A DNA stretch of 54,676 nucleotides from Candidatus Parcubacteria bacterium (GTDB taxonomy: Bacteria > Patescibacteriota > Minisyncoccia > Phycocordibacterales > Zambryskibacteraceae), in contig JAIFWO010000002.1 in NCBI GenBank assembly GCA_019661895.1, forward strand, positions 1 through 54,676. The letters run 5' to 3'. The notes under the pieces were generated by a model. It did no database searches. It worked only from the letters and a program-made list of their open reading frames with translations, and was not told where the DNA came from. Shown one piece after another: positions 8,647-25,607 of the stretch (position 1 is its first letter; each line of letters starts with the position of its first letter). Made by a program: the position numbers and the translations under genes.

Positions 8647-9615
8647 ATGGAAACAGTACTCGTTACGGGAGGGGCGGGCTTTATTGGATCAAATGTTTGC
8701 GAAGCTCTTCTGAAAAAGGGATACCGTGTGATATGTGTTGATAACTTTGATAGTGATCTCTACGATGGAAAAATTAAAGAAGGGTACATTGAGAAACTGA
8801 TAGCTAATCAAAACTTCGCGGTTTATAGGACCGATATCAGACATAAAGCTGAGCTGGAGGATGTTTTCAATAAGGAGAAGCCGGAATTGGTGGCTCATCT
8901 TGCCGCTCGAGCCAATGTCCGAAATGCAGTGAAGGATCCGTATCCATACATTTCTATTAATATTGAAGGTACGCTCAATGTGCTTGAGTGCTGCCGAGAC
9001 AATGCCGTCAAGAATCTAGTTATCGCCTCATCAGGTTCTGTCTATGGCAATGATCCGGTCGTGCCATGGGCCGAAGACCATCTCACAGGAGAGCCAGTCT
9101 CACCTTACGGAGCGTCGAAGCGGTCAGCCGAACTCCTTGCCTATACATATCATCGTAACTTCGATCTCAATATTACTTGCTTGCGTTACTTCAATGCTTA
9201 CGGAGAGAACAATCGACCAGATCTTGTGCCTTATATTTGGGGAAAGGCCATTTTAGACGAAGAAGAGATAGAGATCTCGGGAGATGGAAGTCGCGAGAGG
9301 GATTATACCTATGTAGGTGATGTGGTGAGGGGTACAGTTTTGGCGCTCGAGAAGCCCTTAGGGTTTGAAATAATTAATATTGGCAACTCCAATCCCACTT
9401 CACTCAAGGATTTGCTTGAAATATTTAAAAGAGTAAGTGGTATTGAGGTAAAGGTGAGGTCACGACCAAGTAACTCAGTTAGTATGGAAAAAACTTTTGC
9501 TGACATAACTAAAGCCAAGCGGCTTTTAGATTGGGAGCCCGAGGTTACTCTGGAGGAAGGGGTTCGACGTTTACTTACTTGGCTTCGCGACCACCGACTG
9601 GAAAAATCCGTTTAA
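8647..9615 (+). CDS. NAD-dependent nucleotide-sugar epimerase/dehydratase (extended SDR, GalE/UDP-GlcA 4-epimerase-like)
   Basis: TGGAGFIGS Rossmann motif and the YGASK catalytic Yxxx K. Confidence 0.8.
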   Translation: METVLVTGGAGFIGSNVCEALLKKGYRVICVDNFDSDLYDGKIKEGYIEKLIANQNFAVYRTDIRHKAELEDVFNKEKPELVAHLAARANVRNAVKDPYPYISINIEGTLNVLECCRDNAVKNLVIASSGSVYGNDPVVPWAEDHLTGEPVSPYGASKRSAELLAYTYHRNFDLNITCLRYFNAYGENNRPDLVPYIWGKAILDEEEIEISGDGSRERDYTYVGDVVRGTVLALEKPLGFEIINIGNSNPTSLKDLLEIFKRVSGIEVKVRSRPSNSVSMEKTFADITKAKRLLDWEPEVTLEEGVRRLLTWLRDHRLEKSV

Positions 9616-10771: not shown

Positions 10772-11781
10772 ATGGACTCCAGCGGACTCAAAGTGCTTAT
10801 GATCTCAAGCGACCGCAACATCTTGGTACCTGGAAGCGTGGTTAGGGGGAGGATGGAGGAATTCGGTGGCTTGGTCGAGGAGCTGCATATTGTTATCTTC
10901 TCGCTTCGCACTAAGGGGTTTGAGAGTGGGCAGATTGCTTCAAACGTTTGGGTTTATCCGACGAGCTCTCGCTCAAAATGGTTTTATATTCAAGACGCTT
11001 TTAGAATCGGTGGGCAAATAATTTCTAAAAACAATTTCCTAAAGTCGAGATCTCTACTTACGGTCCAAGATCCGTTTGAAGCAGGATTGGTAGGGGTATG
11101 GATAAAGAAGAAGTGGCATCTCCCGCTTGAGATACAGATGCATATCGACCCGATGTTTCTAGACGGGTATGACAGGCCTCTGGATGTTATCCGTAAGCAA
11201 ATCGCACGTCGAACCCTTGTGGCGGCGGACTCTCTAAGAGTAGTAGCCAAGTTTATTAAAGACAGAATTGAAAAAAGCCTTCCTCTGGTGAAAAAGTTTA
11301 TCTATGTATTGCCGGTCTACATAGACAAAGAGAAGGTAAAATCCTTCCAAGCCAGCTTCGACTTGCACGAGAGGTATGGATTGCGCTTCGTGGTCTTGAT
11401 GGTAGCCAGACTTACCCCTCAAAAGAATCTTCCATTAGCCCTTAGAGTTCTGAAAGCCGTACATGCCAGCTTCCCTGATACAGGTTTAGTTGTGATAGGG
11501 GCTGGGGTCGACGAGGAAAAACTAAAGAGTTTGGCAAAGAGACTTGGCATCGAAGCCCAGGTTGTTTTTGCCGGGTGGCAAGAAGATCTTGCCTCTTATT
11601 ACAAAACTAGCGATGTGTTCATGCAGACATCGAAGTTTGAATAATTGAAGACAAAAATTTAAGGACTAAGCTTGGCACTACACTCAAGGGGACTCTTCAA
11701 GTCCAAGTTTATGATAAGCAGGAGTATCTAGAGGCCTTGAAAAATAATTGGGAGAGAGTAGCTTCTGTTCCACATAAATGA
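10772..11781 (+). pseudogene. decayed GT4 glycosyltransferase (internal deletion removing the EX7E catalytic region, plus a frame change)
   Basis: The ORF stops at 11644 right after ...SDVFMQTSKFE, which is the first Glu of EX7E. A GT4-like C-terminus (IEDKNLRTKLG...YLEALKNNWERV) continues in another frame from 11644 to 11781. It ends in the TGA of an ATGA overlap with the next gene. Confidence 0.6.
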
Positions 11782-12434
11782 CTACTATAAATCCAAAGAT
11801 TGCTCGCCGCTTTGAGGCCGTGGCAAGATCAAAGACCTTCCATAATTTGATACAGATATTTTCCTTAGATCAAAAGGCGGTGCTTGATGTAGGTTGTACC
11901 TATGGAGAATTTCTCAAGCATTTTGGGAAAGAGAGCACAGGCATTACTATCATCTCTGAAGAAGTGGAAGTGGGCCACAAGCTCGGTCTTGATATTAGGC
12001 AAGCCAATATCGAGTATCCGGAGACGGTTAAGCTTGATCGTGCATACGATGTGATCTTCGCCAACAATATCTTCGAGCACATGCTCTCACCTCATACCTT
12101 CCTCCTTGAGATGAAGAAGTATGTGGCGCCTGGAGGTCTCCTTATCTTAGGAGTGCCGTGTGTTCCTAAAATAACGTGGCTTTTGCGTTTAAAAAAGTTC
12201 CGTGGCAGTTTGGCGAGCTTGCATATCAACTTCTTTACCCGAGACACTCTTATAAAGACGGTCGAATATGCTGGATGGTCAGTCAAAGAATGTCGAGGCT
12301 TTCACTTTAAAAACCGTTTTATTGACCGCTTTCTTGATCCCATTTATCCCCACTTCTATGTAGTGGCTACGATGACACCCAATTTCGCTTACTCTCCGAA
12401 GAGGGCCCGTGAAGTGGCGGGATACAATACATGA
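11778..12434 (+). CDS. class I SAM-dependent methyltransferase
   Basis: Motif I VLDVGCTYGEF and motif DVIFANNIFEHM. Confidence 0.7.
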   Translation: MTTINPKIARRFEAVARSKTFHNLIQIFSLDQKAVLDVGCTYGEFLKHFGKESTGITIISEEVEVGHKLGLDIRQANIEYPETVKLDRAYDVIFANNIFEHMLSPHTFLLEMKKYVAPGGLLILGVPCVPKITWLLRLKKFRGSLASLHINFFTRDTLIKTVEYAGWSVKECRGFHFKNRFIDRFLDPIYPHFYVVATMTPNFAYSPKRAREVAGYNT

Positions 12435-13495
12435 AGCCAAGAATACTCATCATTACGCAGAAGGTCGATAGGGAAGACAGCTTGCTTGGGTTCTTCCATT
12501 ATTGGATTGAAAATGTGGCCAAACAGGCAGATAAGGTGACCGTCATAGCTCTCGGCAAGGGTGTGTACTCCTTGCCGGCAAACGTCCAGGTATATTCCTT
12601 GGGCAAAGAGAGAGGTACACCTAAGTTTATGCAAGCGATCAAATTTTATATATACGCATTCCGCGCTCTTATGGAATGCGACGGCATCTTCGTGCATATG
12701 GTCCCTGAGTATGTCCGAGCGGTGTGGCCATTAAATGTTTTCTTCCGAAGGCCTGTCGCAATGTGGTACGCCCATATTCATGTCGGTCCGGCTGCCAGGT
12801 GGGCTATCGATCATGTGGATTATGTTTTGACAGCTTCGAAAGAGAGTTTCGAGTTTGATTCTAGCAAGGTTGTAGTAACTGGGCATGGGATTGACACAGA
12901 CCTCTTCAAACCAGACCCGCTTGTAAAAAAAGAGCCTTTGATCCTCACCATGTCACGAATCTCAAGAGTGAAGCGGCTCGATGTCTTCATTAAGGCCATT
13001 AAACTTCTTAAAGATCGCCATAAGGATATGCCGATTCGGGCACTTATTGCCGGAAGGTTAGCCCGTCCAGAAGACGCAGAGTATCAAAGGGAATTGAAGG
13101 CTCTCATTCATCTATATGGACTCGATGACGTCTTCGGTTGGTATCCAGAAATTACTAACAGCGAGATGCCAGCAATCTATAACAAGGCGGCTGTCTTTGT
13201 GCGAATGCAGGGAGGAGGGGGATTCGGCAAATCGGAGCTGGCTGCCATGTCTTGTGGTGTGCCTTCCGTCATCCCGACAGATGTTTATAAAAAGGATTTA
13301 GGAGAATTTGCCGAGAATACATACTTCAAGGAAGATGATGCCGAAGAGTTGGCTCTCCGTATTGAAGGGGTGCTCTCCTGGGACACGGATACAAAGAGTA
13401 GATATGCCAAGATCGCTCGTGGGATTGTCGTAGATAAGCACAATATAGAGAAGCTCGCTAAGGTAATTGTAAGTCTGCTGGCTAAAAAGCCATGA
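12431..13495 (+). CDS. glycosyltransferase (GT-B, GT4-like)
   Basis: MKPRILIITQK N-terminus. The C-terminal region GGGGFGKSELAAMSCGVPSVIPTD sits in the EX7E position. ATGA overlap with the upstream gene. Confidence 0.65.
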   Translation: MKPRILIITQKVDREDSLLGFFHYWIENVAKQADKVTVIALGKGVYSLPANVQVYSLGKERGTPKFMQAIKFYIYAFRALMECDGIFVHMVPEYVRAVWPLNVFFRRPVAMWYAHIHVGPAARWAIDHVDYVLTASKESFEFDSSKVVVTGHGIDTDLFKPDPLVKKEPLILTMSRISRVKRLDVFIKAIKLLKDRHKDMPIRALIAGRLARPEDAEYQRELKALIHLYGLDDVFGWYPEITNSEMPAIYNKAAVFVRMQGGGGFGKSELAAMSCGVPSVIPTDVYKKDLGEFAENTYFKEDDAEELALRIEGVLSWDTDTKSRYAKIARGIVVDKHNIEKLAKVIVSLLAKKP

Positions 13496-14754
13496 GGTAT
13501 TTGAAACTCGGCATCATGTTTCTCGTCGTTCTGCATGTAGCAAGTGTTTTTCTTATTGCTTTTAGGCATATCGATCCCTCCCCCGTCCAAGACTCTTTAG
13601 AGTACCGGCTGATCTCACAGAGTGTTGTGGCCAACAAATCCTTCTCAATTTATCCAGAGAGACCCGATCTGCTGCGAGGACCTTTGTATCCAATCTTCTT
13701 AGCTGCCACCTCGCTGCACTCCATCTACATCTCGATCTTTTTGCAGGCGCTCCTGCTTCTTGTCACGGCGTATTTACTGCTTAAAATATTGCTTCAGCTT
13801 GGAGTGAGCGAGCGGTACGCACTTTTGGCCATAATATTCTTCTTGGCAGAGCCTTACCAATGGCTCTACTCACTCCAGACGATGTCGGAAATTTTGGGGC
13901 AGTTTTTATTTACTCTCGTAGTCTTTCTTATGGTTCGAAGGAAGATTGGAGAGGAGATGAGCCCCAGAGAATTTGTTCTTGCCGGAGTAGTATTTGGTCT
14001 TTTGGTCTTGGCCAAACCCTCTGTGCTGATCTGGGCCTTGGCCCCCTTGGCTTGTATCTCGATCTCTAAAAATGGCTGGAAATGGAGAATGAAGAGCTTG
14101 GCAGCTTTCCTCCTAAGTCTGATTCTAGTAGTCTCGCCTTGGCTTGTAAGAAATTTTGTTCATACAGAAGAGTGGCTCTTGTCTTCGAGCCAGGCCGTTA
14201 ACAGCGTCATCGGCTTCGGTGCCACTGACGAGATCAGAGAGGCCAAGGCGGGAGAGGTGATATATGACTCGAAGGGCCGGGCAGGTATAGCCTTCAGATC
14301 CTTCTCAGTTGAAGGGTTTAAAGATATCTCGAATCTAAGCAAAGAGGTTGTAGAAAGGAGAGGGCTCTTAAATTTAATTGGTACGCAGCTCCGGTGGTCG
14401 CCGCGAGTCTGGTTTGGGCATGAGTATGCCAGATCATTTGCCATGCTTGGGCATAGAGTCTCTCCAGTCTTTGAAAGGGCAATAAACTTTATAGATAATT
14501 TTGTATGGACACTCGCAGCTCTCATGAGCGTCCTTGGGATATGGTCTCTCTACCGTCAAAGAAAGATTTCTTTAATGATTCTTCTTACCTTGCCACTTTT
14601 CCTAACGATCTTTATAAATCTCAATTTGTCTTATCCGAGGATGCTCGTGCCTTTGTATCCTGTAATAGTGATTGTTTCGATACTTGGTATAAATATGTTA
14701 TTGTCTTCATATTATGATCGGGTACGTATATCTCGCAGGGGCCTTCGTTCTTAA
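13492..14754 (+). CDS. GT-C fold polytopic membrane glycosyltransferase (ArnT/PMT, GT39/GT83-like)
   Basis: Roughly ten or more hydrophobic segments by eye. The first loop carries DSLEY and RGPLYP, which resemble the conserved acidic-loop motifs of ArnT/PMT enzymes. Confidence 0.55.
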   Translation: MRYLKLGIMFLVVLHVASVFLIAFRHIDPSPVQDSLEYRLISQSVVANKSFSIYPERPDLLRGPLYPIFLAATSLHSIYISIFLQALLLLVTAYLLLKILLQLGVSERYALLAIIFFLAEPYQWLYSLQTMSEILGQFLFTLVVFLMVRRKIGEEMSPREFVLAGVVFGLLVLAKPSVLIWALAPLACISISKNGWKWRMKSLAAFLLSLILVVSPWLVRNFVHTEEWLLSSSQAVNSVIGFGATDEIREAKAGEVIYDSKGRAGIAFRSFSVEGFKDISNLSKEVVERRGLLNLIGTQLRWSPRVWFGHEYARSFAMLGHRVSPVFERAINFIDNFVWTLAALMSVLGIWSLYRQRKISLMILLTLPLFLTIFINLNLSYPRMLVPLYPVIVIVSILGINMLLSSYYDRVRISRRGLRS

Positions 14755-15073
14755 TTCCTTAGGCACTGTCTTAGTCAAGATCCACTCGGCCAGGGGGTTT
14801 GTGCTTGAGGGAGGGCTGCTTTCTATCATTACCAAAAATATTTCTTTCATAGGCGCGCTTCTACTCTTCGCGCTCAACCTTATATGCTACTCCTTGGCCC
14901 TCTCACGCCTGCCTCTCTCTGTCGGATACCCAGTCATGACGGTGGCCAGCTTTGTGATTGTGAACGCCTTTTCGTACTTCTACTTCCGCGAGCATATTGG
15001 TCTCATCGAAGTACTTGGATACGCGTTGATCTTAGTGGGCATCACCCTCGTCATCTCCTTCGGCCGAGCCTAA
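14714..15073 (+). CDS. small 4-TM DMT/SMR-type protein, ArnE/ArnF-like polyprenyl-phosphate-sugar flippase candidate
   Basis: 119 aa with four hydrophobic helices. LPLSVGYPV and the C-terminal GYALILVGITLV match EamA/ArnE-type motifs. Confidence 0.55.
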   Translation: MIGYVYLAGAFVLNSLGTVLVKIHSARGFVLEGGLLSIITKNISFIGALLLFALNLICYSLALSRLPLSVGYPVMTVASFVIVNAFSYFYFREHIGLIEVLGYALILVGITLVISFGRA

Positions 15074-15528
15074 TGAAAAAACTTCTATTCGAGAATATCG
15101 ACATCTCGCAGCTTGCAGGTAAAACGGTCATTCTTGATATCGACGGCACTCTGGTGGAAGACGGAAGTTTAGAGTTAACTCCTGAAAGGGCAGAGAAATT
15201 GTCTGAGCTTGCTTCAAGAGCTTACGTCTTCCTGGCTACCAATAAGCCCTTGCCAGAGCGTAATCGTGACTTTGCCGCTTTAGTTGCCCTTCCACTCCTT
15301 ACAGGTCTACGCAAGCCAGATCCAAGAATTATTGACCGGATTCCAGAGGAGTATAAAAAGGACTTGGTGGTAATAGGGGACAAGGCCAGTATTGACGGCC
15401 GCTTAGCCAGGAATGTTGGGGCTAAGTTCATATACACTGCCCACATTTATAAGCCTGGAGACTCAGCTCTTACCTATTTGTTTTATTTCTTGGATAGCGT
15501 ATTCTCTGTGCTGTTGAGATGGATATAA
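15073..15528 (+). CDS. HAD-IIIA phosphatase (YqeG/PGP-phosphatase-like)
   Basis: The ATG sits in a TAATG overlap with the upstream stop. HAD motifs are present: ILDIDGTLV (motif I), LATNK (motif II), RKPDP (motif III Lys) and VIGDKASIDGRLA (motif IV). Confidence 0.7.
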   Translation: MKKLLFENIDISQLAGKTVILDIDGTLVEDGSLELTPERAEKLSELASRAYVFLATNKPLPERNRDFAALVALPLLTGLRKPDPRIIDRIPEEYKKDLVVIGDKASIDGRLARNVGAKFIYTAHIYKPGDSALTYLFYFLDSVFSVLLRWI

Positions 15529-16358
15529 AAGCCTATATCAAGCTTGCCCGTCCGCACCACTGGGTCAAGAATGTCCTCATTTTTTTGCCGGCCTTCTTTG
15601 CTGGGGTGATTTCTAATAGCCATATTTTCCTGAGTGTCTTGTACTCTTTTATAACCTTTTGCCTAGCGGCAAGTGCCGTCTACGCGGTAAATGACCTTCT
15701 TGACTTACACACCGACAAGGAGCACGAAATAAAGCGTTTAAGGCCCCTTGCCAGCGGTAGGATCAGCCCCAAAGAAGGGTTTGCCATAGCTCTTGGCCTG
15801 TTTGTAGTGGCAACACTCCTTGCCTATGCCCTCGTCCCCTCAACCTTGAAGCTGCTCTTGGTTTATGGAGCAATAAATATTTTGTACTCTTATTCGCTTA
15901 AGCACATTCCGGTAGTCGATCTTATTATCTTTACTGTGCTCTATCTCATTAGAATCATGGTTGGGGGTGAGGCGGCTGGAGTTCCTGTTTCAGAATGGCT
16001 CATCCTTTGTACCATCTTCCTCTCCCTCTTCCTAGTGGTGGCTAAGAGGTTCGCCGAGCTAGAGAGGCAAGGGAGGCGCCGTGTCCTCCAATTTTACTCG
16101 GCGAAGTTCTTGGAGACCTTACTCGTAATGAGCGCCACCCTCTCCATTATCTCGTTTGCGCTTTACACCATTATTGGGCACAGCGACAAGCTGCTTGTCT
16201 ATTCAAACTTGTTTGTGATTTTTGGAATCTCGAGATACTTCTTCCTGGTGTATTCCTCAAGTCATGCTGAGTCTCCTGAGAAGGCCCTCTTCCATGACTG
16301 GTGGCTCCTCTGCGGGGTTGTGGCTTGGGCGGGCTATCTTCTTTGGGTATTCTATTAA
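15519..16358 (+). CDS. UbiA-family prenyltransferase, decaprenyl-phosphate phosphoribosyltransferase-like
   Basis: The N-terminus ARPHHWVKNVLIFLPAFFAG and NDLLDLHTDKEH are typical of the Rv3806c-like branch of the UbiA family. The protein has 8-9 TM segments. Confidence 0.65.
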   Translation: MDIKAYIKLARPHHWVKNVLIFLPAFFAGVISNSHIFLSVLYSFITFCLAASAVYAVNDLLDLHTDKEHEIKRLRPLASGRISPKEGFAIALGLFVVATLLAYALVPSTLKLLLVYGAINILYSYSLKHIPVVDLIIFTVLYLIRIMVGGEAAGVPVSEWLILCTIFLSLFLVVAKRFAELERQGRRRVLQFYSAKFLETLLVMSATLSIISFALYTIIGHSDKLLVYSNLFVIFGISRYFFLVYSSSHAESPEKALFHDWWLLCGVVAWAGYLLWVFY

Positions 16359-16376
16359 CTTTAGTATAGTATCGGT

Positions 16377-17417
16377 ATGGCAAAGCGTGTATTAATAACA
16401 GGGGGGGCAGGCTTCTTGGGTATTAATCTGGCGCGGTATTACTTGGCCAAGGGCTACACAGTCAGGTCTTTAGACATTGTGACTTTTGATTATCCGGAGA
16501 GAGGCAATATAGAAGAGTACACAGGAGACATTAGAGATATAAAAGCGGTGGCTAAAGCTATGGAGGGGGTGGATGTCGTTGCCCATACCGCGGCCGCTCT
16601 ACCTCTATACAAGGAAGAGGACATCTTCTCGACTGATATAGATGGGACAAGAAATATTTTAGAAGCGGCCTTGGCGGTTAAAGTTCCGAGAGTGATTCAC
16701 ATCTCTTCTACCGCTGTCTATGGCATACCGGATCATCATCCGCTCTTTGAAACAGACAAGCTCGATGGTGTCGGCCCATATGGCAAGGCCAAGATCTTGG
16801 CAGAAGAGATGTGCGATGAATATAGAAAGAAGGGTATGTGCGTGCCAATTATCAGGCCCAAGTCCTTTATTGGACCAGAGCGGTTGGGCGGCTTCGCACT
16901 CTTTTATGACTGGGCTAAGGATGGGAAGAACTTCCCGATGATCGGATTCGGCCATAATCGCTACCAACTTCTCGATGTTGAAGATTTGTGCGAGGCAATC
17001 TACCTTGCCACTGAGCTGCCCTGCGATAAGGTCAATACCGTCTTCAATATCGGGGCAGAGGAGTTTACGACTATGAAGGAGGATTATCAGGCGGTCTTGG
17101 ATCGGGCAGGCTTTGGCAAGAGGATTGTCGGCTTCCCAGCTTGGCCGATGATTTGGACCTTGAGGGTATTAGAGTTTTTCCATCTCTCGCCCCTCTACAA
17201 ATGGGTCTACGAGACCGCTTCGAAAGACAGCTTCGTCTCGATCGATAAAGCCAAAAAGGTTTTGGGCTGGCAGCCGAAGTATTCAAATAAAGATGCCCTA
17301 GTGCGCAATTATGATTGGTACGTATCTCATTTGAACGAATTTGAGCATGCCTCAGGAGTCTCGCATCGGGTGCCATGGAAGCAGGGGATCCTCAAGTTCT
17401 TTAAATTATTCTTCTAA
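16377..17417 (+). CDS. NAD(P)-dependent epimerase/dehydratase (extended SDR)
   Basis: TGGAGFLGINL and the YGKAK catalytic pair. TATAGT at 16365-16370 lies 6 nt upstream of the ATG. Confidence 0.75.
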   Translation: MAKRVLITGGAGFLGINLARYYLAKGYTVRSLDIVTFDYPERGNIEEYTGDIRDIKAVAKAMEGVDVVAHTAAALPLYKEEDIFSTDIDGTRNILEAALAVKVPRVIHISSTAVYGIPDHHPLFETDKLDGVGPYGKAKILAEEMCDEYRKKGMCVPIIRPKSFIGPERLGGFALFYDWAKDGKNFPMIGFGHNRYQLLDVEDLCEAIYLATELPCDKVNTVFNIGAEEFTTMKEDYQAVLDRAGFGKRIVGFPAWPMIWTLRVLEFFHLSPLYKWVYETASKDSFVSIDKAKKVLGWQPKYSNKDALVRNYDWYVSHLNEFEHASGVSHRVPWKQGILKFFKLFF

Positions 17418-18529
17418 TGAAGAAGTTCTACTATATCGCCAATATCCGCATGCCGACCGAACGGGCGCATGGTATCCAGATCATGGAGATGTGCAAGGCC
17501 TTTAGCACTCTTGGCTTTGATCTTGAACTCATTGTGCCCAATAGGAAGACCGATATTACCGATGATCCTTTCGCTTATTACGATATCGACAAAACATTTG
17601 AGATAAAAAAGCTCTGGTGCCTCGATCTTGTGAAGTGGGGAAGAGTTGGATTTTGGATCCAGTCCCTGACTTTTGCCAAAAGTGTTTTGTGGTACGTCTT
17701 GGCAAAGGATGGAATATTTTATACTCGAGACGAGCCCATCGCATTCTTCCTAAGCGCATTTGGAAAGAGGATTACCTGGGAGGCCCATATGGGGCAGAAG
17801 AATTTGTTTGTCAGAACTCTTATCAAGTTGCATACGAAGATCGTGGTCATTACTGATGGTCTAAAGAATTTATACTCCTCGCTTGGTGTTCGGAAGGGAG
17901 AACTTATGGTAGCGCCTGACGGCGCAGACATAGATAGGTTCGATATTGATGTTACCCAGAATGAGGCGCGTAAACAGCTCAATTTGCCATTGAATAAGAA
18001 AATAGTTTTATACAAAGGGTCCCTCTCAACATGGAAGGGGCCAGGTACGTTGGCCCAAGCCGCTCGCTTTATACAAACGCAGGATGTGCTCGTTGTCTTT
18101 ATTGGTGGCAAACCTGAAGATGTCGAGGCGTTTAAAAAAGAGTTTAAAGATATTACGAACCTTCTCATCCTCGGTAACCGTCCAAGAAAGGAGACGCCAG
18201 TGTATCAAAAGGCGGCGGATGTCTTGGTGATACCCAATAGTGCCAAAGAGGATATCTCCAAGCTCTACACCTCTCCCATGAAGCTTTTTGGCTATATGGC
18301 TGGGGGAGTGCCAATAGTCTCGTCTGATCTGCCCTCCCTTCGAGAGGTGCTCAGCGAGTCAAGCGCCTATTTGTGTATCCCAGATGATCCCCAAAGTTTA
18401 GCTCAGACCATCGATAAAGTTTTCCAAGAGTATGCAAATGCAGAAATCAAAGCCAGGCGGGCCCTTGAGGAAGTCCGCAAATATTCCTGGAAAAATAGGG
18501 CAGAGCAGATTATTAATTTTATCGCATGA
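17417..18529 (+). CDS. glycosyltransferase family 4
   Basis: N-terminal RMPTERAHGIQIMEMCKAF and a C-terminal GT-B region ending in GGVPIVSSDLPSLREV. TAATG overlap with the upstream gene. Confidence 0.7.
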   Translation: MKKFYYIANIRMPTERAHGIQIMEMCKAFSTLGFDLELIVPNRKTDITDDPFAYYDIDKTFEIKKLWCLDLVKWGRVGFWIQSLTFAKSVLWYVLAKDGIFYTRDEPIAFFLSAFGKRITWEAHMGQKNLFVRTLIKLHTKIVVITDGLKNLYSSLGVRKGELMVAPDGADIDRFDIDVTQNEARKQLNLPLNKKIVLYKGSLSTWKGPGTLAQAARFIQTQDVLVVFIGGKPEDVEAFKKEFKDITNLLILGNRPRKETPVYQKAADVLVIPNSAKEDISKLYTSPMKLFGYMAGGVPIVSSDLPSLREVLSESSAYLCIPDDPQSLAQTIDKVFQEYANAEIKARRALEEVRKYSWKNRAEQIINFIA

Positions 18530-20262
18530 AGAGTCACGTGGATCATTTATTAGGATATATCCCCAATCTTTTTTCTGGAAAGATCCTTGATCTTGGTTCT
18601 GGTCGAGGGAACTTCCTCGTCGAGGTGGCCCGTCGAGGCGGGCTTGCCTTTGGAGTTGAGCCATACGATGAATATGTCAAAAAAAGTTTAGAGCTTGCCA
18701 GGTCAAAAAATGTGTCTATTGAAGTCAAAAAGGGTGTAGCCGAGAGCATACCCTTCCCAGATTCGCAGTTCAACTTCGTCAATATTTGTGAAGTTATTGA
18801 ACACGTCGAAGATCCCAAGAAACTTTTGGGCGAAGTTAATCGAGTGCTTGGGCCGGGCGGCTTAGCATATCTCTCGATACCCAATCGATATGGCTGGTAT
18901 GATCCACACTTCCATTTGTACGGTTTAAATTGGATACCACGGTTGTGGGCCTTCAAGGTGATAGGCTGGCTTAAGAAACATAAGGATTACTCGGGCAAGG
19001 CAGGCAGACAAAGTATTGTTGATATGCATTACTCTACTTTTTCCAAAACGTGTCAGCTTGTAGAAAATAAAGGTTTCGTAGTACAGGATATGAGAGTAAT
19101 AAAAATTCGGAAGCGCTTAAAGCACTTGGCGCCAATCTTCGTACTGGTATACCTTCCCTTGAGGAAATTTTATTTCAACTCCTTTCATCTCTTGCTCGAG
19201 AAGGCTGACAATAAAGTTATTTTACTCACTCATACTCTAAAGAAACAGTCTGGGTGGGGGCGTTATTCCGCGGAGGTGGCCGAACATCTAAAACAACGAC
19301 AGTTTGAAGTGAAAGTACTTGAGATTAATAGTTCTCTTGATCCTTTGAGATTTATCAGGAGCCTTTTCTTGGTAAGAAAACAGGTGCGAAAGTTTCAGCT
19401 TGTCCATGCACTTGATGGTTGGCCCTATGGGGCTTATGGATTCTTCGGTGTTCTTGGAACTGCTAAGAAGCTTTTTGTAAGCGGTATAGGTACTTATGCT
19501 GTGCCGCAAGGAAATTTTTTTAAGAAGTTTTTAATGCAGAAAGTATATCGAAGAGCAGCAGCTGTCTTTGCCATAAGTCGCTACACAAAAGATCAAATCA
19601 CAAAAAAAGTCCCTGGAGCAAAAACCAAAGTTGTTCATATGGGTCTCACTCGCTTGCCCGAAGTGACGAAAGAAGAGTGTGGTGAATTCTTAAAAAAGTT
19701 TGGCCTCGATGCACACACCACTCATATCCTAACTGTTGGAGAGATTAAGAATCGCAAAGGCCAATACGACACATTACAAGCCTTTAAAATATTGCATGAT
19801 GAGTACCCACAAGCAGTATATATCATGGTGGGTAAAAGCGAAGACAAGAAGTATCGAGAGAAGATTGATATGTTTATAAAAGATCATAATCTCGGAAATG
19901 CTGTGAAAATCATTACTCATATATCGAATGATAGGGAACTCGCCTATCTTTACTCTTCTGCACACGTTTTCGCTCTCAACTCAAGAAATGAAAGTGGACA
20001 CTTCGAGGGCTTTGGTTTAGTAATACTTGAAGCGGCTCAATTCGGAGTGCCGGCAGTAGGTAGCAGGAACTGCGGCATAGAAGATGCTATAGTCGACGGT
20101 GTTACTGGGTACTTGGTAAACCAGGGAGATATTAAAAGTATTCACGAGGCCTTCCTAAGGGCTCTCCAGTTACCTAAAGATAAGATCCAAGGATTTGCAG
20201 AAAGCTTTTCTTGGAATAGGACAGTCTCAGCCTATATTGATGAGTATAATAGTGTCATATGA
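18526..20262 (+). CDS. bifunctional fusion: class I SAM methyltransferase (N-terminal) plus GT4 glycosyltransferase (C-terminal)
   Basis: N-terminal ILDLGSGRGNF and ICEVIEHVEDP. C-terminal EGFGLVILEAAQFGVPAVGSRNCGIEDAIVDGVTGYLV. Confidence 0.7.
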   Translation: MKSHVDHLLGYIPNLFSGKILDLGSGRGNFLVEVARRGGLAFGVEPYDEYVKKSLELARSKNVSIEVKKGVAESIPFPDSQFNFVNICEVIEHVEDPKKLLGEVNRVLGPGGLAYLSIPNRYGWYDPHFHLYGLNWIPRLWAFKVIGWLKKHKDYSGKAGRQSIVDMHYSTFSKTCQLVENKGFVVQDMRVIKIRKRLKHLAPIFVLVYLPLRKFYFNSFHLLLEKADNKVILLTHTLKKQSGWGRYSAEVAEHLKQRQFEVKVLEINSSLDPLRFIRSLFLVRKQVRKFQLVHALDGWPYGAYGFFGVLGTAKKLFVSGIGTYAVPQGNFFKKFLMQKVYRRAAAVFAISRYTKDQITKKVPGAKTKVVHMGLTRLPEVTKEECGEFLKKFGLDAHTTHILTVGEIKNRKGQYDTLQAFKILHDEYPQAVYIMVGKSEDKKYREKIDMFIKDHNLGNAVKIITHISNDRELAYLYSSAHVFALNSRNESGHFEGFGLVILEAAQFGVPAVGSRNCGIEDAIVDGVTGYLVNQGDIKSIHEAFLRALQLPKDKIQGFAESFSWNRTVSAYIDEYNSVI

Positions 20263-20987
20263 AGTACTTCTTCTTTAAGCTAAGGCAGGATCTGGCCACC
20301 CTCTTTTCGTATCCGGAGACCTCTCTCAAGGAGCATCCGCGAGTTGACTACGATTACTACTGGCAAAAGCGGGGTAGGAAAGGGTCTGCGCATCTCTCGG
20401 CTTGGCAGAAGGAGCGTGCGGATATCCTGTGCAGCCAAGTCTCAGAAGGCGACACTGTGCTCGACATTGGATGCGGCGACGGTGCACTTCTTAAGTATGT
20501 GATGGATAAAAAGAAGATTCTGGGGATCGGAGTAGACATGAGCGAGCCGGTACTTGCCACGGCAAGGGAGTTAGGTATTGAGACGCATTTGGTCGACCTC
20601 CGTAATCTGGATGCAGTAAGAAGGCTTCCCCGTGCTGACTACGTCATTGGTTTCGAAATCCTTGAACATATCCCTGAGCCGGAAGAACTTATCCTGACTC
20701 TGGCAGCGAAGACTCGTAAGGGCATGCTCTACTCCTTCCCCAACACTGGCTACTATCTGCATCGCTTGCGCTTGCTCTTCGGGCGCTTCCCTCGTCAGTG
20801 GATCGTGCACCCGGCAGAGCATGTGCGTTACTGGACCCTCAAGGACTCACGATGGTGGGTCTCAAATCTTGGTTTGAAGCTTAAAGAAGTTATTACGTAC
20901 CAAGGTTTGCCAGGACTTAACAAGCTCATCCCATCGTGGTTTGCCCAGGGTCAGATCGTTTCCATTTCTATGGAAAAGCCACTATAG
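20259..20987 (+). CDS. class I SAM-dependent methyltransferase (MetW-like)
   Basis: VLDIGCGDGALL and GFEILEHIPEPEE. Confidence 0.7.
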   Translation: MKYFFFKLRQDLATLFSYPETSLKEHPRVDYDYYWQKRGRKGSAHLSAWQKERADILCSQVSEGDTVLDIGCGDGALLKYVMDKKKILGIGVDMSEPVLATARELGIETHLVDLRNLDAVRRLPRADYVIGFEILEHIPEPEELILTLAAKTRKGMLYSFPNTGYYLHRLRLLFGRFPRQWIVHPAEHVRYWTLKDSRWWVSNLGLKLKEVITYQGLPGLNKLIPSWFAQGQIVSISMEKPL

Positions 20988-20995
20988 TTAGGGGT

Positions 20996-21961
20996 ATGAA
21001 GCCAGGAGCGACCAAAGTAAGTGAGGAGCCGCTAAAAGAGGCCATCGAAGCCCTAAAAGGCCTAAGGAAAGACCTCTCCTCAATAGCTAAGGCAGGCACT
21101 CTTTTGCAGAAGCGTAAGGGCAAAATCATTATTACCGGAGTCGGGAAGTCGGCATTTATAGGCATGAAGATGGCAGCCACCTTCACGAGCCTTGGCGAGA
21201 CAGCAATCTTTTTGCACCCGGTCGAGGCCCTACATGGCGACTCGGGCCTAGTCGGCAAGGGAGACGTGCTTATTGCCCTATCGTTTTCTGGTGAGTCGTC
21301 GGAGGTGATACGAATCGTGAAATATATATCTAAGATATTTTCAATCCAGGTGATCTCTGTTACAGGCGGGATGCATTCCAAGCTTGCCAAACTCTCGAAC
21401 GTAGTTATTCCAATTAACATTCGCAGAGAGGGATCTCCTTTGAATCTTGCACCAATGGCCTCGACGACCGCCTCGCTTGTGGTGGGTGATATGCTCGCCG
21501 CTCAATTGGTTGGCAACAAGCCATTTACTAAAAATCACTTCAGCAGATTCCATCCTGGCGGCTCGCTTGGGCTCTCGCTCATAACAGTTGAAGAAATAAT
21601 GGAAAGAGGATCGGACCTGCCATTAGTACCAGAAGGCGTCGAATTGTCCAGAGCTATAGATGCGGTGAGTAAAAGGGGAAGGGGAGTCGTGGGGGTAATG
21701 GCAAAGAACAAAACTCTTGTCGGCATCCTTACTGACGGAGATATTCGACGATTTGTGCTGAAGCACTCAACGATTCGTGGCGCTAGAGTCGGGCAAGCCA
21801 TGACCAAAAATCCTAAAGTTATAGGAAAGCAGGATAGTTTGTACGCCGCGCTCGAGCTAATGGAGCAATGGAAGATCACCAACCTCTTTGTCGTCGATAA
21901 AAGACTCATGCCAATCGGACTTGTCCATATGCACGATATCGTTGAGCACACCTTGCGATAA
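20996..21961 (+). CDS. kpsF: arabinose-5-phosphate isomerase (KpsF/GutQ family, SIS plus tandem CBS domains)
   Basis: SIS motifs GVGKSAFIG and SFSGESSE, followed by two CBS-like repeats at the C-terminus. I chose ATG 20996 because TATAGT at 20983-20988 lies 7 nt upstream. Confidence 0.8.
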   Translation: MKPGATKVSEEPLKEAIEALKGLRKDLSSIAKAGTLLQKRKGKIIITGVGKSAFIGMKMAATFTSLGETAIFLHPVEALHGDSGLVGKGDVLIALSFSGESSEVIRIVKYISKIFSIQVISVTGGMHSKLAKLSNVVIPINIRREGSPLNLAPMASTTASLVVGDMLAAQLVGNKPFTKNHFSRFHPGGSLGLSLITVEEIMERGSDLPLVPEGVELSRAIDAVSKRGRGVVGVMAKNKTLVGILTDGDIRRFVLKHSTIRGARVGQAMTKNPKVIGKQDSLYAALELMEQWKITNLFVVDKRLMPIGLVHMHDIVEHTLR

Positions 21962-23430
21962 TGAGCCAATTTACAACAAAAGACTTTCCATACAGGCTCG
22001 ATCTTTTAAGAAAGATTAACAGCTTGAAAATAAATGGATCCCCTTTGGCGAGTCGAAGGGTTTTCTCTGACTATAATGTTTGGATTTTCTTCCAAAATAA
22101 GATGTTTTACCAGGATATAAAACACTTTTGCGAGAGAGGGATTGCTTCAACTTTAAAGCCAGGGTTACGTGTTAGGGTCCAGGCAGCAGGCCTCATGTGC
22201 CTTGCTCTTCTCGTCTCAACGGCAGCCATGTTGAAGCTCCTCATACTTAAGGTGCCGGTACTCATATACGCCATTGATCGAGTAAGTTCCCAGTTTTCTA
22301 AAAGTGATGCCCGACTCGATCCGGTATATGAAGCAGTTTTTAAAAAGGACTTAAAATTTGTCGAAGGTTTCCACACTGTTCTTGATAAAAGATTTCTAGA
22401 AAATCTGTTTAAGCGGAGCCGAGTAGCTTTGTATATAAAGGCGATTGATGCTTTATTTCCAGCCGCTCGGATGCTCGGCAAAACATTAGCGGTCGAGGAG
22501 GTCGTGTGGCATCGATCTGATTTAAGCATCTTTTCTTCCGAAGAGGAGATTTTTGTTCAAAAAATTGTAAGCAAATATCTTTCTCAAATTCCTCTTGTTG
22601 AATTCCGTGTTCGCGCGTTGGCGTATATCTTGAAGCGTTCCAAACTCTCTACCATCCTTGCCATTGATAACACGCGCGATTATTGGGAGCTTGTCTTGGG
22701 AGCGCAACTGGCCGCCGTGCCTGTCTGTGCCTTCCAGCATGGCCACTATACCAAGTATCATGTAGGTTGGTTAAATAAAGGAGGTGAGTTCACTGGAACA
22801 ATTGTCCGTCCGAGCCGTCTGTATGTGTGGAGCAACTTCTGGAAGAGCGAGCTCATAAGGCTTGGGACATATTGGAGTCCCGAAGAAATTTTTGTCGGCG
22901 GAGCTAAGGAGAAGATGGCAGCACCTCTCCCCAAGAACTCTTCGGAAGGGTTTATTACGGTTGTCGTGCCGTATGAAGTAGATAGCAATAAGGTCGAGGT
23001 TAAGCAATATATAGATGCGCTTCTCAATTGTCCAAAGGTAAGGGTAGTCTTTAAGGCTCGAGGAGATATGTCCATCGACTCTCAGCTTGAGGCCTCGCTC
23101 TTGTCACGACAGTATCATGAGAGATTCTCCTTTACGGAAGACACCAAAAAGGCTATTAAACAGGGAGACATCTTTGCTGGGACGTATTCGACGCTTCTCT
23201 ACGACATGATCATGTTTGAGAAGCCAATCCTCTATTTTAAAACCTCTTCGGACTTCGGTGAAGGGCTTGTCATAAACGGCCTGGCCGAAGGTATAGAGTT
23301 GTCAGAAGTTACCCAGCAGAGGCTCGAGTCCATTGCTCAGACAGACGCAGCCACTCTTATCAAGCGGAAGGAGCGTCTTTATAGCCCGCTCGAGATGATC
23401 ATGGCTGGGAGTGTTATGGATGCAATTTAG
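21961..23430 (+). CDS. hypothetical protein, weakly TagB/TagF-like (polyol-phosphate transferase-like GT-B)
   Basis: FQHGHYTKYH and the C-terminal GDIFAGTYSTLLYDMIMFEKPILYF resemble the HG and TDYSS..fD....kPiiyf motifs of CDP-glycerol glycerophosphotransferases. The resemblance is motif-level only. Confidence 0.35.
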   Translation: MSQFTTKDFPYRLDLLRKINSLKINGSPLASRRVFSDYNVWIFFQNKMFYQDIKHFCERGIASTLKPGLRVRVQAAGLMCLALLVSTAAMLKLLILKVPVLIYAIDRVSSQFSKSDARLDPVYEAVFKKDLKFVEGFHTVLDKRFLENLFKRSRVALYIKAIDALFPAARMLGKTLAVEEVVWHRSDLSIFSSEEEIFVQKIVSKYLSQIPLVEFRVRALAYILKRSKLSTILAIDNTRDYWELVLGAQLAAVPVCAFQHGHYTKYHVGWLNKGGEFTGTIVRPSRLYVWSNFWKSELIRLGTYWSPEEIFVGGAKEKMAAPLPKNSSEGFITVVVPYEVDSNKVEVKQYIDALLNCPKVRVVFKARGDMSIDSQLEASLLSRQYHERFSFTEDTKKAIKQGDIFAGTYSTLLYDMIMFEKPILYFKTSSDFGEGLVINGLAEGIELSEVTQQRLESIAQTDAATLIKRKERLYSPLEMIMAGSVMDAI

Positions 23431-23460
23431 CAGGAGTTGACTTATAATTACCACAACGAT

Positions 23461-24339
23461 ATGCACTCTCTCCTCGATAACGTCACCAAAGCAGATATTG
23501 TCGTCGATCCGTATCCGTATTTGCTTGTACGAAACGTACTCCCAAGGGAATTTGCAGATTATCTCTTAGAGCATTTTCCAAGTATCGAGGAGATGAGTAA
23601 GGGGGCGAGCGGGGCAAAGGGCTTGTCCGTCTCAAACTATCCGGAAAATAAAAAGTTTTGCATGTACGGCAAGGAGGTCGTCGATAGCGACTCAATCGAC
23701 CTCCAGATTCGGGAATTCTTTGCGGAGCATGCTTCGGTTGAATTTTTCAAAAAGATCACCGCCCTCTTCGAGGAGCATATTAAGGTTGACTCCCCAAAGG
23801 CATACGAATATATACAATCCATCAACGAAGATGGTGTGGGATTTATTCATGAGTCTGGTTCGGAGTCGAAGAAACTGATCATAGATGGAGGGCTCTGCAT
23901 TGATACTCCGGCCAAGACCCCGGATCTTAACCCTGGTGTCCATCTCGATAATCCGAAGAAGATTTGCGGAGCACTTCTCTACCTCAAGCACCCAGAAGAT
24001 CGTGCCCCTGGCGGAGAGTTCAATGTCTACGGGACTCCTAAGGCTAAGGTCGAGATCGATCCAAAGATGATGGTAAAGAGCGAATATATGCCGCTCTTCA
24101 AACAATCTCTAGCCAAATCCATAGGCTATGAGCACAATACGCTTTTGGTCTTCTTGAACTCGTCGCGTGCTTTCCACGGCGTGGTGCCGCGATACTATGC
24201 AGAGCACTTCCGCTATACGATGAACTTGGCCTTCAATGCCAATAGGCCTGTGCACAACTTTTCCAAGTACGAGGAATCGTTTATATCTAAAAAGCTACGA
24301 GCGGGAAAGTTCTATTTTAAAAAGATTACGGGCCGTTAA
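23461..24339 (+). CDS. 2OG-Fe(II) oxygenase superfamily protein (prolyl-4-hydroxylase-like)
   Basis: HLD (HxD) followed by GALLYLKHPEDRAPGGEFNVY, with a distal AFHGV. The ORF track starts at TTG 23437, but that TTG is part of a TTGACTTATAAT promoter-like element (TATAAT at 23443-23448), so I prefer ATG 23461. Confidence 0.6.
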   Translation: MHSLLDNVTKADIVVDPYPYLLVRNVLPREFADYLLEHFPSIEEMSKGASGAKGLSVSNYPENKKFCMYGKEVVDSDSIDLQIREFFAEHASVEFFKKITALFEEHIKVDSPKAYEYIQSINEDGVGFIHESGSESKKLIIDGGLCIDTPAKTPDLNPGVHLDNPKKICGALLYLKHPEDRAPGGEFNVYGTPKAKVEIDPKMMVKSEYMPLFKQSLAKSIGYEHNTLLVFLNSSRAFHGVVPRYYAEHFRYTMNLAFNANRPVHNFSKYEESFISKKLRAGKFYFKKITGR

Positions 24340-25585: not shown

Positions 25586-25607
25586 AAGTTTATGCTACCA
25601 TAACACG

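Follow-up and report, generated by a model that had tools for sequence, protein, structure and literature searches.

A Patescibacteria gene module predicted to make, flip and use a lipid-linked pentofuranose

The genome of a Candidatus Parcubacteria bacterium (NCBI GenBank assembly GCA_019661895.1) contains a compact group of five genes which raises the question of whether members of the Patescibacteria build a pentose on a lipid carrier for use outside the cell and, if so, which pentose this is. The genes lie in contig JAIFWO010000002.1, within the stretch of 54,676 nucleotides that was analysed as a whole and is referred to here as the window, where they occupy positions 13492-17417 of the + strand. 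Our reading, to which we would give a probability of roughly 0.8, is that they form the Patescibacteria version of a three-component system for extracytoplasmic pentofuranose glycosylation, to which an auxiliary epimerase has been added. A preliminary description of this DNA had proposed five consecutive genes with overlapping or nearly abutting ends, coding for an ArnT-like GT-C glycosyltransferase, an ArnE/F-like protein with four transmembrane (TM) helices, a HAD phosphatase, a UbiA-family enzyme resembling decaprenyl-phosphate phosphoribosyltransferases and an extended short-chain dehydrogenase/reductase (SDR), which together would make, flip and use a polyprenyl-phosphate-pentose donor derived from phosphoribosyl pyrophosphate (PRPP). 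All five genes are present in these positions, the family assigned to each of them has been borne out, and every test that was run agrees with this core reading of a HAD and a lone SDR serving the donor pathway and a GT-C enzyme using its product.

The five co-directional genes encode, in order and all on the + strand, a GT-C membrane protein (13492-14754, 420 aa), a 4-TM protein like those of the Small Multidrug Resistance (SMR) family (14714-15073, 119 aa), a HAD hydrolase (15073-15528, 151 aa), a UbiA-fold protein (15519-16358, 279 aa) and the extended SDR (16377-17417, 346 aa). Taken straight from the DNA letters, the junctions comprise a 4-nt ATGA overlap between an upstream GT4 glycosyltransferase gene and the GT-C gene (13492-13495), a 41-nt overlap between the GT-C and SMR genes (ATG at 14714, TAA at 14752-14754), a TAATG with a 1-nt overlap at 15073 between the SMR and HAD genes, a 10-nt overlap between the HAD and UbiA genes (ATG at 15519, TAA at 15526-15528), an 18-nt gap between the UbiA and SDR genes, and a second TAATG at 17417 where the SDR gene meets a downstream GT4 gene. 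Given these junctions, 'translationally coupled' is a fair description of the group. We place the HAD start at 15073 rather than at the mechanical open reading frame (ORF) start of 14884 because its homologues, which are 147-158 aa long, begin to align at residues 1-6. For all of the module proteins the nearest relatives come from metagenome bins of the Patescibacteria, or Candidate Phyla Radiation (CPR).

The clustering of these genes is not a matter of chance. Genes for the UbiA-fold protein, the SDR and the HAD occur together in seven independent Patescibacteria loci (L001, L006/7, L008/9, L010/11, L012, L013 and L021), four of which (L001, L008, L010 and L012) also hold the SMR gene within the module, and a PMT_2/GT-C-like protein is usually encoded near by. 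Identities to the window proteins are 39-51% for UbiA, 68-75% for the SDR, 32-40% for the HAD (in six loci, that of L021 being recognised by Pfam only) and 37-43% for the SMR protein. Six of the loci were assigned by homologue identity and L021 by Pfam and synteny, this last having been reached independently through a 36%-identical GT-C relative (P0252) which sits in an operon with the order UbiA-HAD-SDR-GT-C. The preliminary description had looked to a conserved gene order in relatives; what we find conserved is the association of the genes, whilst their order is shuffled between CPR loci, which argues for selection on the association and not for the inheritance of one operon. The pairing of the SDR with the UbiA-fold protein extends further, to a spirochaete, to Streptomyces and to haloarchaeal megaplasmids, and in Halostagnicola the pair sits with a GT-C annotated as "DolP-mannose mannosyltransferase" and a PHP phosphoesterase.

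A published framework for such an association exists. "Three-component" pentofuranose systems were described in 2024 by Kelly, Duong, Nothof, Lowary and Whitfield in PNAS, with the ORF15-ORF14-(ORF13)-ORF12 genes of Citrobacter youngae O1/O2 as the prototype (PMC11127046). In these, ORF15 is a HAD "PRP" domain fused to an Rv3806c-like polyprenyl-phosphate 5-phosphoribosyltransferase (PPPRS) and makes farnesyl-phosphate-ribofuranose from PRPP, ORF14 is a small ArnEF/EmrE-like transporter and candidate flippase, and ORF12, a GT-C enzyme and the founder of GT136, adds the pentofuranose after export (PMC11127046). In C. youngae O2 a single cytoplasmic GalE-like SDR, ORF13, decides between xylofuranose (Xylf) and ribofuranose (Ribf) in the side chain by making the C3 epimer undecaprenyl-phosphate-xylofuranose without DprE1, and C. 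youngae O1 works without an epimerase (PMC11127046). The authors' survey paired Xylf glycans with ORF13 homologues and arabinofuranose (Araf) glycans with DprE1/E2 homologues; it found further systems in Gram-negatives, Gram-positives and one phage, called them widespread, and already included cases in other taxa where PRP and PPPRS are split into separate genes, the transporter is of the SMR type or the GT-C is annotated as hypothetical, with Patescibacteria and archaea going unmentioned (PMC11127046). Our literature search returned no paper linking the PPPRS pathway to CPR and no follow-up on GT136 or on polyprenyl-phosphate-Xylf epimerases.

The UbiA-fold protein matches the Mycobacterium tuberculosis Rv3806c structures (PDB 8j8j/8j8k) at 35.7% identity over 266 aligned residues (E=1e-39). 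The residues with which Rv3806c binds the Mg2+, ribose, 5'-phosphate and pyrophosphate of PRPP have been defined by structure, and ordinary UbiA prenyltransferases do not share its phosphoribose contacts (PMC10994848), so the presence of these in the window protein is diagnostic. Ten of the twelve PRPP/Mg-binding residues are identical (R22, K28, Y70, N73, D77, K87, R90, Y138, K143 and Y157 in Rv3806c numbering) and the other two are conservative changes (Q135 to N and K208 to R). In the protein's own numbering the PRPP contacts include R11, K17, Y55, K72, R75, Y123, K128 and Y142, and the catalytic set, made up of the N-D-x-x-D-x-x-x-D motif and the R/E of loop IV, is N58, D59, D62, D66, R177 and E180. 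The best NCBIfam matches are three decaprenyl-phosphate phosphoribosyltransferase models (194, 188 and 153 bits), and the HAD-UbiA fusion model PRK08238 gives 190 bits, whereas no quinone, haem or chlorophyll prenyltransferase model gives more than 60; the grouping with quinone or haem enzymes that the preliminary description had named as a refuting outcome was, therefore, not observed. There is also 40% identity to the UbiA part of an ORF15-like protein from the E. coli O99 locus introduced below. Taken together, these data indicate that the UbiA-fold enzyme is a predicted phosphoribosyltransferase which sides with Rv3806c and not with the prenyltransferases. Four relatives from outside the CPR (L002-L005) have no SDR, HAD or GT-C gene near by, and so not every PPPRS-like gene belongs to such a module. 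In two of these (L002, from an uncultured bacterium, and L004, from an Ignavibacteria genome; 6321-10885), the Rv3806c-like gene, 36-37% identical, sits between methylmalonyl-CoA mutase and DUF362/EamA genes.

The HAD protein is soluble and of the HAD-IIIA/YqeG/PGP-phosphatase-like kind (NCBIfam TIGR01662 HAD-IIIA, 40 bits; YqeG, 35 bits), with all four HAD motifs intact: DIDGT (motif I, where ILDIDGT corresponds to DxDxT), LATNKP (II), RKPDP (III) and GDKASID (IV). Elsewhere in the CPR the UbiA enzyme carries a HAD of the same kind as an N-terminal fusion, in two cases confirmed by domain analysis (P0019 of L012, and P0036) and possibly in five further UbiA matches of 415-446 aa, judged from their length only. 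Such a fusion is genomic evidence that both enzymes act together and, along with co-occurrence and precedent, it suggests that the HAD would remove the 5'-phosphate from polyprenyl-phosphate-ribose-5-phosphate. The precedent is the PRP domain of ORF15, for which a D18A mutant accumulates farnesyl-phosphate-ribose-5-phosphate (PMC11127046). The fused HAD differs in type between lineages, being PF12710 in E. coli O99 (L020, 5214-6662) and Rhizobium (L014, 14489-15931) and PGP-phosphatase/HAD-IIIA in the CPR (L012, 8001-9299, and P0036), and because two HAD subfamilies have been fused to a phosphoribosyltransferase, the 5'-phosphatase appears to have been recruited independently. In Halostagnicola the PHP phosphoesterase occupies the place of the HAD, a PHP enzyme being recruited as the phosphatase in haloarchaea.

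If the module works as in C. youngae O2, the identity of the pentose would depend upon the SDR. This is a soluble extended SDR (Pfam Epimerase, 130 bits) with the motifs TGGAGFLG, SSTAVYG and YGKAK, an invariant D33 and the S-Y-K triad. With an acidic residue at D33 the Rossmann fold is predicted to be of the NAD rather than the NADP type, and we take SSTAVYG to be GalE-like, as opposed to the STDEVYG of dehydratases. A Pfam scan of the protein gave no match to adh_short, the family of classical SDRs, so it is not of the DprE2 type, and identity with DprE2 was rejected on this ground; identity with HpnA was likewise rejected, given a score of 113 bits against a cut-off of 368. Neither DprE1-type (FAD_binding_4/ALO) nor adh_short proteins were found among the window ORFs scanned against Pfam, a scan outside which a few ORFs of at least 150 aa lay, or in the seven related CPR loci, in keeping with the earlier statement that a DprE1-type FAD oxidase is missing.

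As a proxy for ORF13 we used a protein from a syntenic locus that the published 48-nt lambda-Red arm locates in six genomes of E. coli, among them that of an O99:H6 strain. The order in the O99 locus is HAD-UbiA (482 aa), SMR, SDR (326 aa) and a DUF7024 GT-C; the SDR begins MRHIITGGSG, which fits the ORF13 forward cloning primer save for a single base, apparently misread during text extraction, and a search with the reverse primer gave no match. The literature on the E. coli O99 O-antigen does not state which pentose, if any, the O99 locus adds. The window SDR aligns with this ORF13-like SDR from end to end at 31% identity (149 bits, E=2e-45), whilst the best scores against any SDR in the PDB are at most 83 bits for the window protein and at most 64 bits for the E. 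coli protein. The two have in common motifs beyond the generic SDR signature, RPxxxxGPxRLG and NRYQ(L/M)xDVxD, and this likeness places them in what would be one PPPRS-associated SDR subfamily; an identity of 31% does not fix whether it is C3 or C2 that would be inverted.

The SDR carries a C-terminal tail, PWKQGILKFFKLFF, with a hydrophobic moment of 0.50. The tail HRVPWKQGILKFFKLFF (17320-17417, residues ~329-346) is among the three most amphipathic 14-residue segments of the protein and the sole one of these with a clearly positive mean hydrophobicity; it is kept in CPR, Chloroflexi, haloarchaeal, Streptomyces and Rhizobium homologues, whilst the ORF13-like protein of E. coli O99 lacks it. 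Being amphipathic, it may serve as a membrane-surface anchor for a soluble SDR acting on a lipid-linked sugar. The clade to which the SDR belongs is tightly conserved: its best 120 homologues come from six or more phyla (CPR, Chloroflexi, Margulisbacteria, Spirochaetes, Elusimicrobia and Actinobacteria) and have a mean pairwise identity of 76% with 112 of 346 columns invariant, compared with a mean of 38% for the best 120 UbiA homologues. In six of the seven CPR loci no more than 110 nt separate the SDR gene from the UbiA gene (the HAD-UbiA fusion gene in the case of L012), and in L021 it follows an intervening HAD gene; it adjoins the UbiA gene in the spirochaete and in Streptomyces, and the two are divergent and ~500 nt apart in Halostagnicola.

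With regard to export, the 4-TM protein has four hydrophobic segments, scores 28.9 bits against Pfam Multi_Drug_Res (Small Multidrug Resistance; cut-off 23.7) and finds its best NCBIfam match, under the cut-off, in ArnF (E=4.9e-7), a subunit of the flippase for undecaprenyl-phosphate-L-Ara4N (4-amino-4-deoxy-L-arabinose). It is 32% and 26% identical to the SMR proteins of the pentofuranose loci of Rhizobium CCGE531 and E. coli O99, respectively. By analogy with these systems, the SMR-like protein would flip polyprenyl-phosphate-pentose, probably as a homodimer. Genes for LPG_synthase_TM proteins, which resemble the flippase domain of MprF, adjoin the PPPRS-SDR pair in Halostagnicola (L015, 4865-6507), Streptomyces (L016, 13792-14943) and one CPR locus (L013, 4607-5593), and may encode alternative flippases for the lipid-linked pentose.

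The GT-C protein has ~10 TM helices and a small outside loop region, and lacks a carbohydrate-binding module (CBM). Its Pfam PMT_2 match lies under the threshold (18.8 bits, E=0.002, cut-off 26.1), several relatives scoring above it. A word-indexed search returned nine weak homologues and was replaced by an exhaustive one, which shows a family that is real but small, with 24 proteins at E<=1e-30. A first AlphaFold2 model from 10 sequences was poor (pLDDT 62) and gave way to one from a 62-sequence alignment (pLDDT 96, pTM 0.93). Searching the PDB with this model in Foldseek, we found that all 24 of the top 24 matches are membrane enzymes of the GT-C superfamily (ArnT, PglB, STT3, ALG9, Pmt1/2, AftB, AftD, PimE and one GPI-transamidase chain), with probabilities reaching 1.00; the best E-value belongs to ArnT (5ezm, E=1.7e-4) and the three matches at E<=0.001 are all GT-C enzymes, so the fold does not group with unrelated families, the second risk that had been named for the proposal. 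Directly after TM1 lies the motif D34-x-x-E37-Y38, whose D34, E37 and Y38 hold the same position as D31, E34 and Y35, the residues mutated in the GT136 enzyme ORF12 of Citrobacter, and D34, Y38, R62, P64, Y66 and P67 are each at least 90% conserved in the family. A search for GT136 membership gave no BLAST match to the E. coli ORF12-like protein and an hhalign probability of 2.8%, and the Pfam scan gave no match to DUF7024 or EpsG. GT-C relatives or PMT_2 proteins adjoin the module in L008, L012, L013, L021 and Halostagnicola, that of L008 being an unannotated 547-aa neighbour which is a remote relative of the window family (hhalign probability 93%). On the basis of its fold and this linkage, the GT-C is predicted to use a lipid-linked pentofuranose at the membrane's outer face.

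These components can be arranged into a pathway. At the cytoplasmic face of the membrane the PPPRS would move ribose-5-phosphate from PRPP to polyprenyl-phosphate, as its homology and active site suggest, and the stand-alone HAD-IIIA enzyme would then take off the 5'-phosphate to leave polyprenyl-phosphate-ribofuranose, a step to which the gene fusions and co-occurrence point. The NAD-bound SDR, which its C-terminal tail probably keeps at the membrane, would epimerise the ribose by transient oxidation and reduction in a redox-neutral reaction, and its most likely product, judged by homology with C. youngae ORF13, would be polyprenyl-phosphate-xylofuranose, the C3 epimer. The SMR/ArnEF-like protein would flip the donor, as is assumed for all such systems, and the GT-C would transfer the pentofuranose outside the cell onto the glycan of the surrounding GT4/methyltransferase/Wzx/Wzy_C locus. 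The acceptor is probably the product of this locus, with a polysaccharide of the wall and a glycan linked to protein as the candidates.

The module is embedded in a larger co-directional glycan locus with several GT4s, three methyltransferase domains and kpsF. The GT4 gene coupled to the GT-C gene through the ATGA overlap (12431-13495, +; Glycos_transf_1, 69 bits) stands upstream, and the TAATG downstream of the SDR leads into a Pfam-identified GT4, a methyltransferase-GT4 fusion and a MetW-like methyltransferase (17417-20987, +). Beyond these are a Wzx-type flippase (24341-25585, - strand; Polysacc_synt, 72 bits) and a Wzy_C/O-antigen-ligase-like protein with TPR repeats (25518-27764, +; Wzy_C, 79 bits), which are likely to export the acceptor glycan and to polymerise or ligate it; both genes are syntenic with L006 at 41-43% identity, and Wzy_C-TPR genes also adjoin the module in L010/L011. 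An ordinary NDP-sugar SDR (8647-9615) is encoded separately from the module. A further GT4 gene (10772-11644) seems to have been cut short, by pseudogene formation or a sequencing frameshift: it stops at position 103 of the 172 in the Glycos_transf_1 domain, and a gap of 130 nt comes after it. Just upstream of the glycan locus there is a homologue of TraG/TrwB/VirD4-like coupling-protein ATPases (3002-4783; weak Pfam matches).

The preliminary description had also drawn attention to the nearby kpsF as a source of arabinose-5-phosphate. The gene for this SIS+CBS arabinose-5-phosphate isomerase is genuine (20996-21961; TIGR00393, 249 bits, cut-off 204) but its link to the pathway is unproven, as L006 is the only other examined locus in which it accompanies the module, and a route from arabinose-5-phosphate into the pathway is not supported. 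The stretch at 20259-23430 is syntenic with 2757-5891 of L006, the closest relative, with identities of 50% for kpsF, 35% for the 489-aa protein that follows it and 46% for the MetW-like methyltransferase. For the 489-aa protein no Pfam, NCBIfam or PDB match was found, and the 300-aa ORF next to it (23437-24339) is an orphan with no family or structure match. We rejected kpsF and these two orphans as parts of the module, given the one syntenic locus and the lack of family or structure matches for the orphans. The presence of kpsF is itself unexpected in a lineage thought to lack lipopolysaccharide and Kdo. The suggestion that the module sits beside genes for very large surface proteins did not survive: there is a single ORF of 5078 aa (36465-51701), 19 kb away and separated from the module locus by housekeeping genes (secA, obg, gatB and others). 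Its one recognisable domain is an fn3 near the N-terminus, and the GC skew of the region is strongly negative (-0.30 to -0.37 at 40-48 kb).

Several points weigh against our reading. All module functions are predictions from sequence or structure models. The UbiA enzyme falls under the NCBIfam equivalog cut-offs for all three phosphoribosyltransferase models (194 vs 234 bits for the best), the HAD is of the IIIA, PGP-phosphatase-like subfamily whereas the characterised PRP domain is of the PF12710 type, and the GT-C has a sub-threshold PMT_2 match and no detectable sequence relationship to GT136. The SDR is 31% identical to an ORF13-like protein, in a comparison made with the E. coli O99 homologue and not with ORF13 itself. 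Neither an initiating phosphoglycosyltransferase nor a PRPP synthetase was seen among the window ORFs scanned. Finally, SDRs of 75% identity occur without a UbiA gene within 7 kb in Anaerolineae and Margulisbacteria contigs (L017, 7001-8041; L018, 7001-8038); the SDR may, therefore, have a role beyond the module, and these stand-alone copies are the main observation that does not fit an SDR limited to it.

The alternative that survives best keeps the same pathway but makes the SDR a single-enzyme 2'-epimerase, so that the donor would be polyprenyl-phosphate-D-arabinofuranose and the GT-C an arabinofuranosyltransferase, which we consider unlikely. The distance of the SDR clade from the ORF13-like protein, its tightness as a group of its own and its extra tail all mean that regiospecificity could differ, whereas no single-SDR 2'-epimerase of a polyprenyl-phosphate-pentose is known, and in the published survey every Araf glycan with a genome had DprE1/E2 and every Xylf glycan an ORF13 homologue (PMC11127046). 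The arabinofuranosyltransferase AftB is among the best superpositions on the GT-C model (TM-score 0.54, rmsd 7.3), but the likeness is no better than that to ALG9 or STT3. The occurrence of kpsF near the module in the window and in L006 would suit an arabinose theme, with no mechanistic link to it. Within the scheme as a whole we regard Xylf as roughly twice as likely as Araf.

It is more doubtful still that the donor stays as polyprenyl-phosphate-ribofuranose, with the SDR acting on a nucleotide sugar for the backbone glycan or on some other lipid-linked intermediate, and we think this improbable. Extended SDRs usually act on NDP-sugars, near-identical SDRs stand alone and far from UbiA in the Anaerolineae and Margulisbacteria contigs, and C. 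youngae O1 works without an epimerase (PMC11127046). However, the SDR gene is adjacent or nearly adjacent to that of the PPPRS in all seven CPR loci, the spirochaete, Streptomyces and haloarchaea whilst the other neighbours change, the nearest relative of the SDR to which a function has been assigned by inference is the ORF13-like epimerase, the SDR tail is of a membrane-seeking kind, and the window has its own separate NDP-sugar SDR at 8647-9615. Least probable by far is a set of five genes that are mere neighbours in a glycan locus, in which the UbiA homologue would be no more than a conventional prenyltransferase of the aromatic or lipid type, since, although the Pfam match is to the generic UbiA family and the NCBIfam phosphoribosyltransferase matches lie under their curated cut-offs, the residues for phosphoribose and 5'-phosphate specific to Rv3806c are conserved, true prenyltransferase models score three times lower, and a phosphatase fusion with constant GT-C, SMR and SDR linkage would be senseless for quinone or haem synthesis.

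Under our preferred reading, of a pentofuranose system with an auxiliary epimerase, the 2024 systems are extended to a new major lineage, the Patescibacteria, and via the SDR-PPPRS pair to the haloarchaea, and a very strongly conserved SDR clade is identified with Xylf or Araf as its candidate product. The Patescibacteria, whose genomes are tiny, live attached to host cells, and their surface chemistry is almost uncharted. The recurrence of the module in seven of their loci suggests that the decoration is important for the envelope or for host contact. There is, in addition, a small chance that the SDR clade is not a Xylf-forming orthologue of ORF13 at all and instead works by itself, with no need of DprE1, as a 2'-epimerase or as a 2',3'-epimerase whose product is lyxofuranose. 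As this clade spans CPR, Chloroflexi, Margulisbacteria, spirochaetes, actinobacteria and haloarchaea, the surfaces of ultra-small episymbiotic bacteria and of archaea would in that case commonly carry D-Araf, or a pentofuranose never yet seen in glycans.

The module invites comparison with several known systems. With ArnT and ArnE-ArnF of the L-Ara4N pathway it shares a polyprenyl-phosphate-sugar donor, an SMR-like flippase and a GT-C, but the Arn donor comes from a UDP-sugar by the action of a GT2 enzyme (ArnC) whereas that of the window would come from PRPP by a UbiA-fold enzyme, and the window has a single flippase gene in place of the ArnE-ArnF heterodimer pair. The D-Araf decoration of group IV pilins in Pseudomonas (para)aeruginosa by TfpW likewise combines a PPPRS-derived lipid-linked pentofuranose, a GT-C and a surface target; Pseudomonas has DprE1/E2 homologues and a pilin acceptor, whereas neither a pilin gene nor DprE1 is found among the scanned window ORFs. 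In the rhizobial noeC(N)HOP system for Nod-factor arabinosylation, NoeC is a PPPRS and NoeN a proposed 5'-phosphatase (PMC5080398), with the DprE1/E2-like NoeH/NoeO and a lipo-chitooligosaccharide acceptor setting it apart. Another rhizobial locus, on a plasmid of Rhizobium sp. CCGE531 (L014, 7989-15931; the 'elaborate' system of Kelly et al.), has two SDRs, 35% and 28% identical to that of the window, together with a GMC oxidoreductase, an SMR protein, a 127-aa orphan and a 658-aa membrane protein, and may make more than one pentose epimer.

The mycobacterial decaprenyl-phosphate-arabinose pathway has a homologous first enzyme in Rv3806c and also makes its pentofuranose inside the cell for use by GT-C enzymes outside. 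It differs in its phosphatase (PAP2, Rv3807c, compared with HAD-IIIA), in its flippase candidate (the GtrA-like Rv3789, compared with an SMR/ArnEF-like protein) and in the FAD oxidase DprE1 and classical SDR DprE2, neither of which is among the scanned window ORFs; the window GT-C relates to Emb/Aft by fold only and not by sequence, and the likely product in the window is not arabinose. The closest correspondence is with C. youngae, through the Rv3806c-like PPPRS, the HAD 5'-phosphatase, the small EmrE/ArnEF-like flippase, a GT-C acting after export, a single GalE-like SDR in place of DprE1/E2 and the polysaccharide-locus setting. The preliminary description had thought the use of a HAD for PAP2, the lack of DprE1 and the lone SDR unusual, and the pathway uncharacterised outside a few lineages; neither view can be upheld, given that the same architecture was published for C. 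youngae O1/O2 in 2024 and such systems called widespread (PMC11127046), and xylofuranose, the C3 epimer made by ORF13, was not among the options it offered. Against this prototype, the window HAD is a separate gene of the HAD-IIIA/PGP-phosphatase-like type and not a fused PF12710 domain, the GT-C is a minimal 420-aa PMT_2/ArnT-like protein without a CBM and not a member of GT136, the SDR falls in a clade of its own, highly conserved and marked by an amphipathic tail at the C-terminus, and the host is a monoderm-type member of the Patescibacteria with a Wzx/Wzy_C locus where the prototype serves a Gram-negative ABC-transporter O-antigen. The module is, then, a system of the type published in 2024 found in a new phylum with some of its parts swapped, and not a new pathway.

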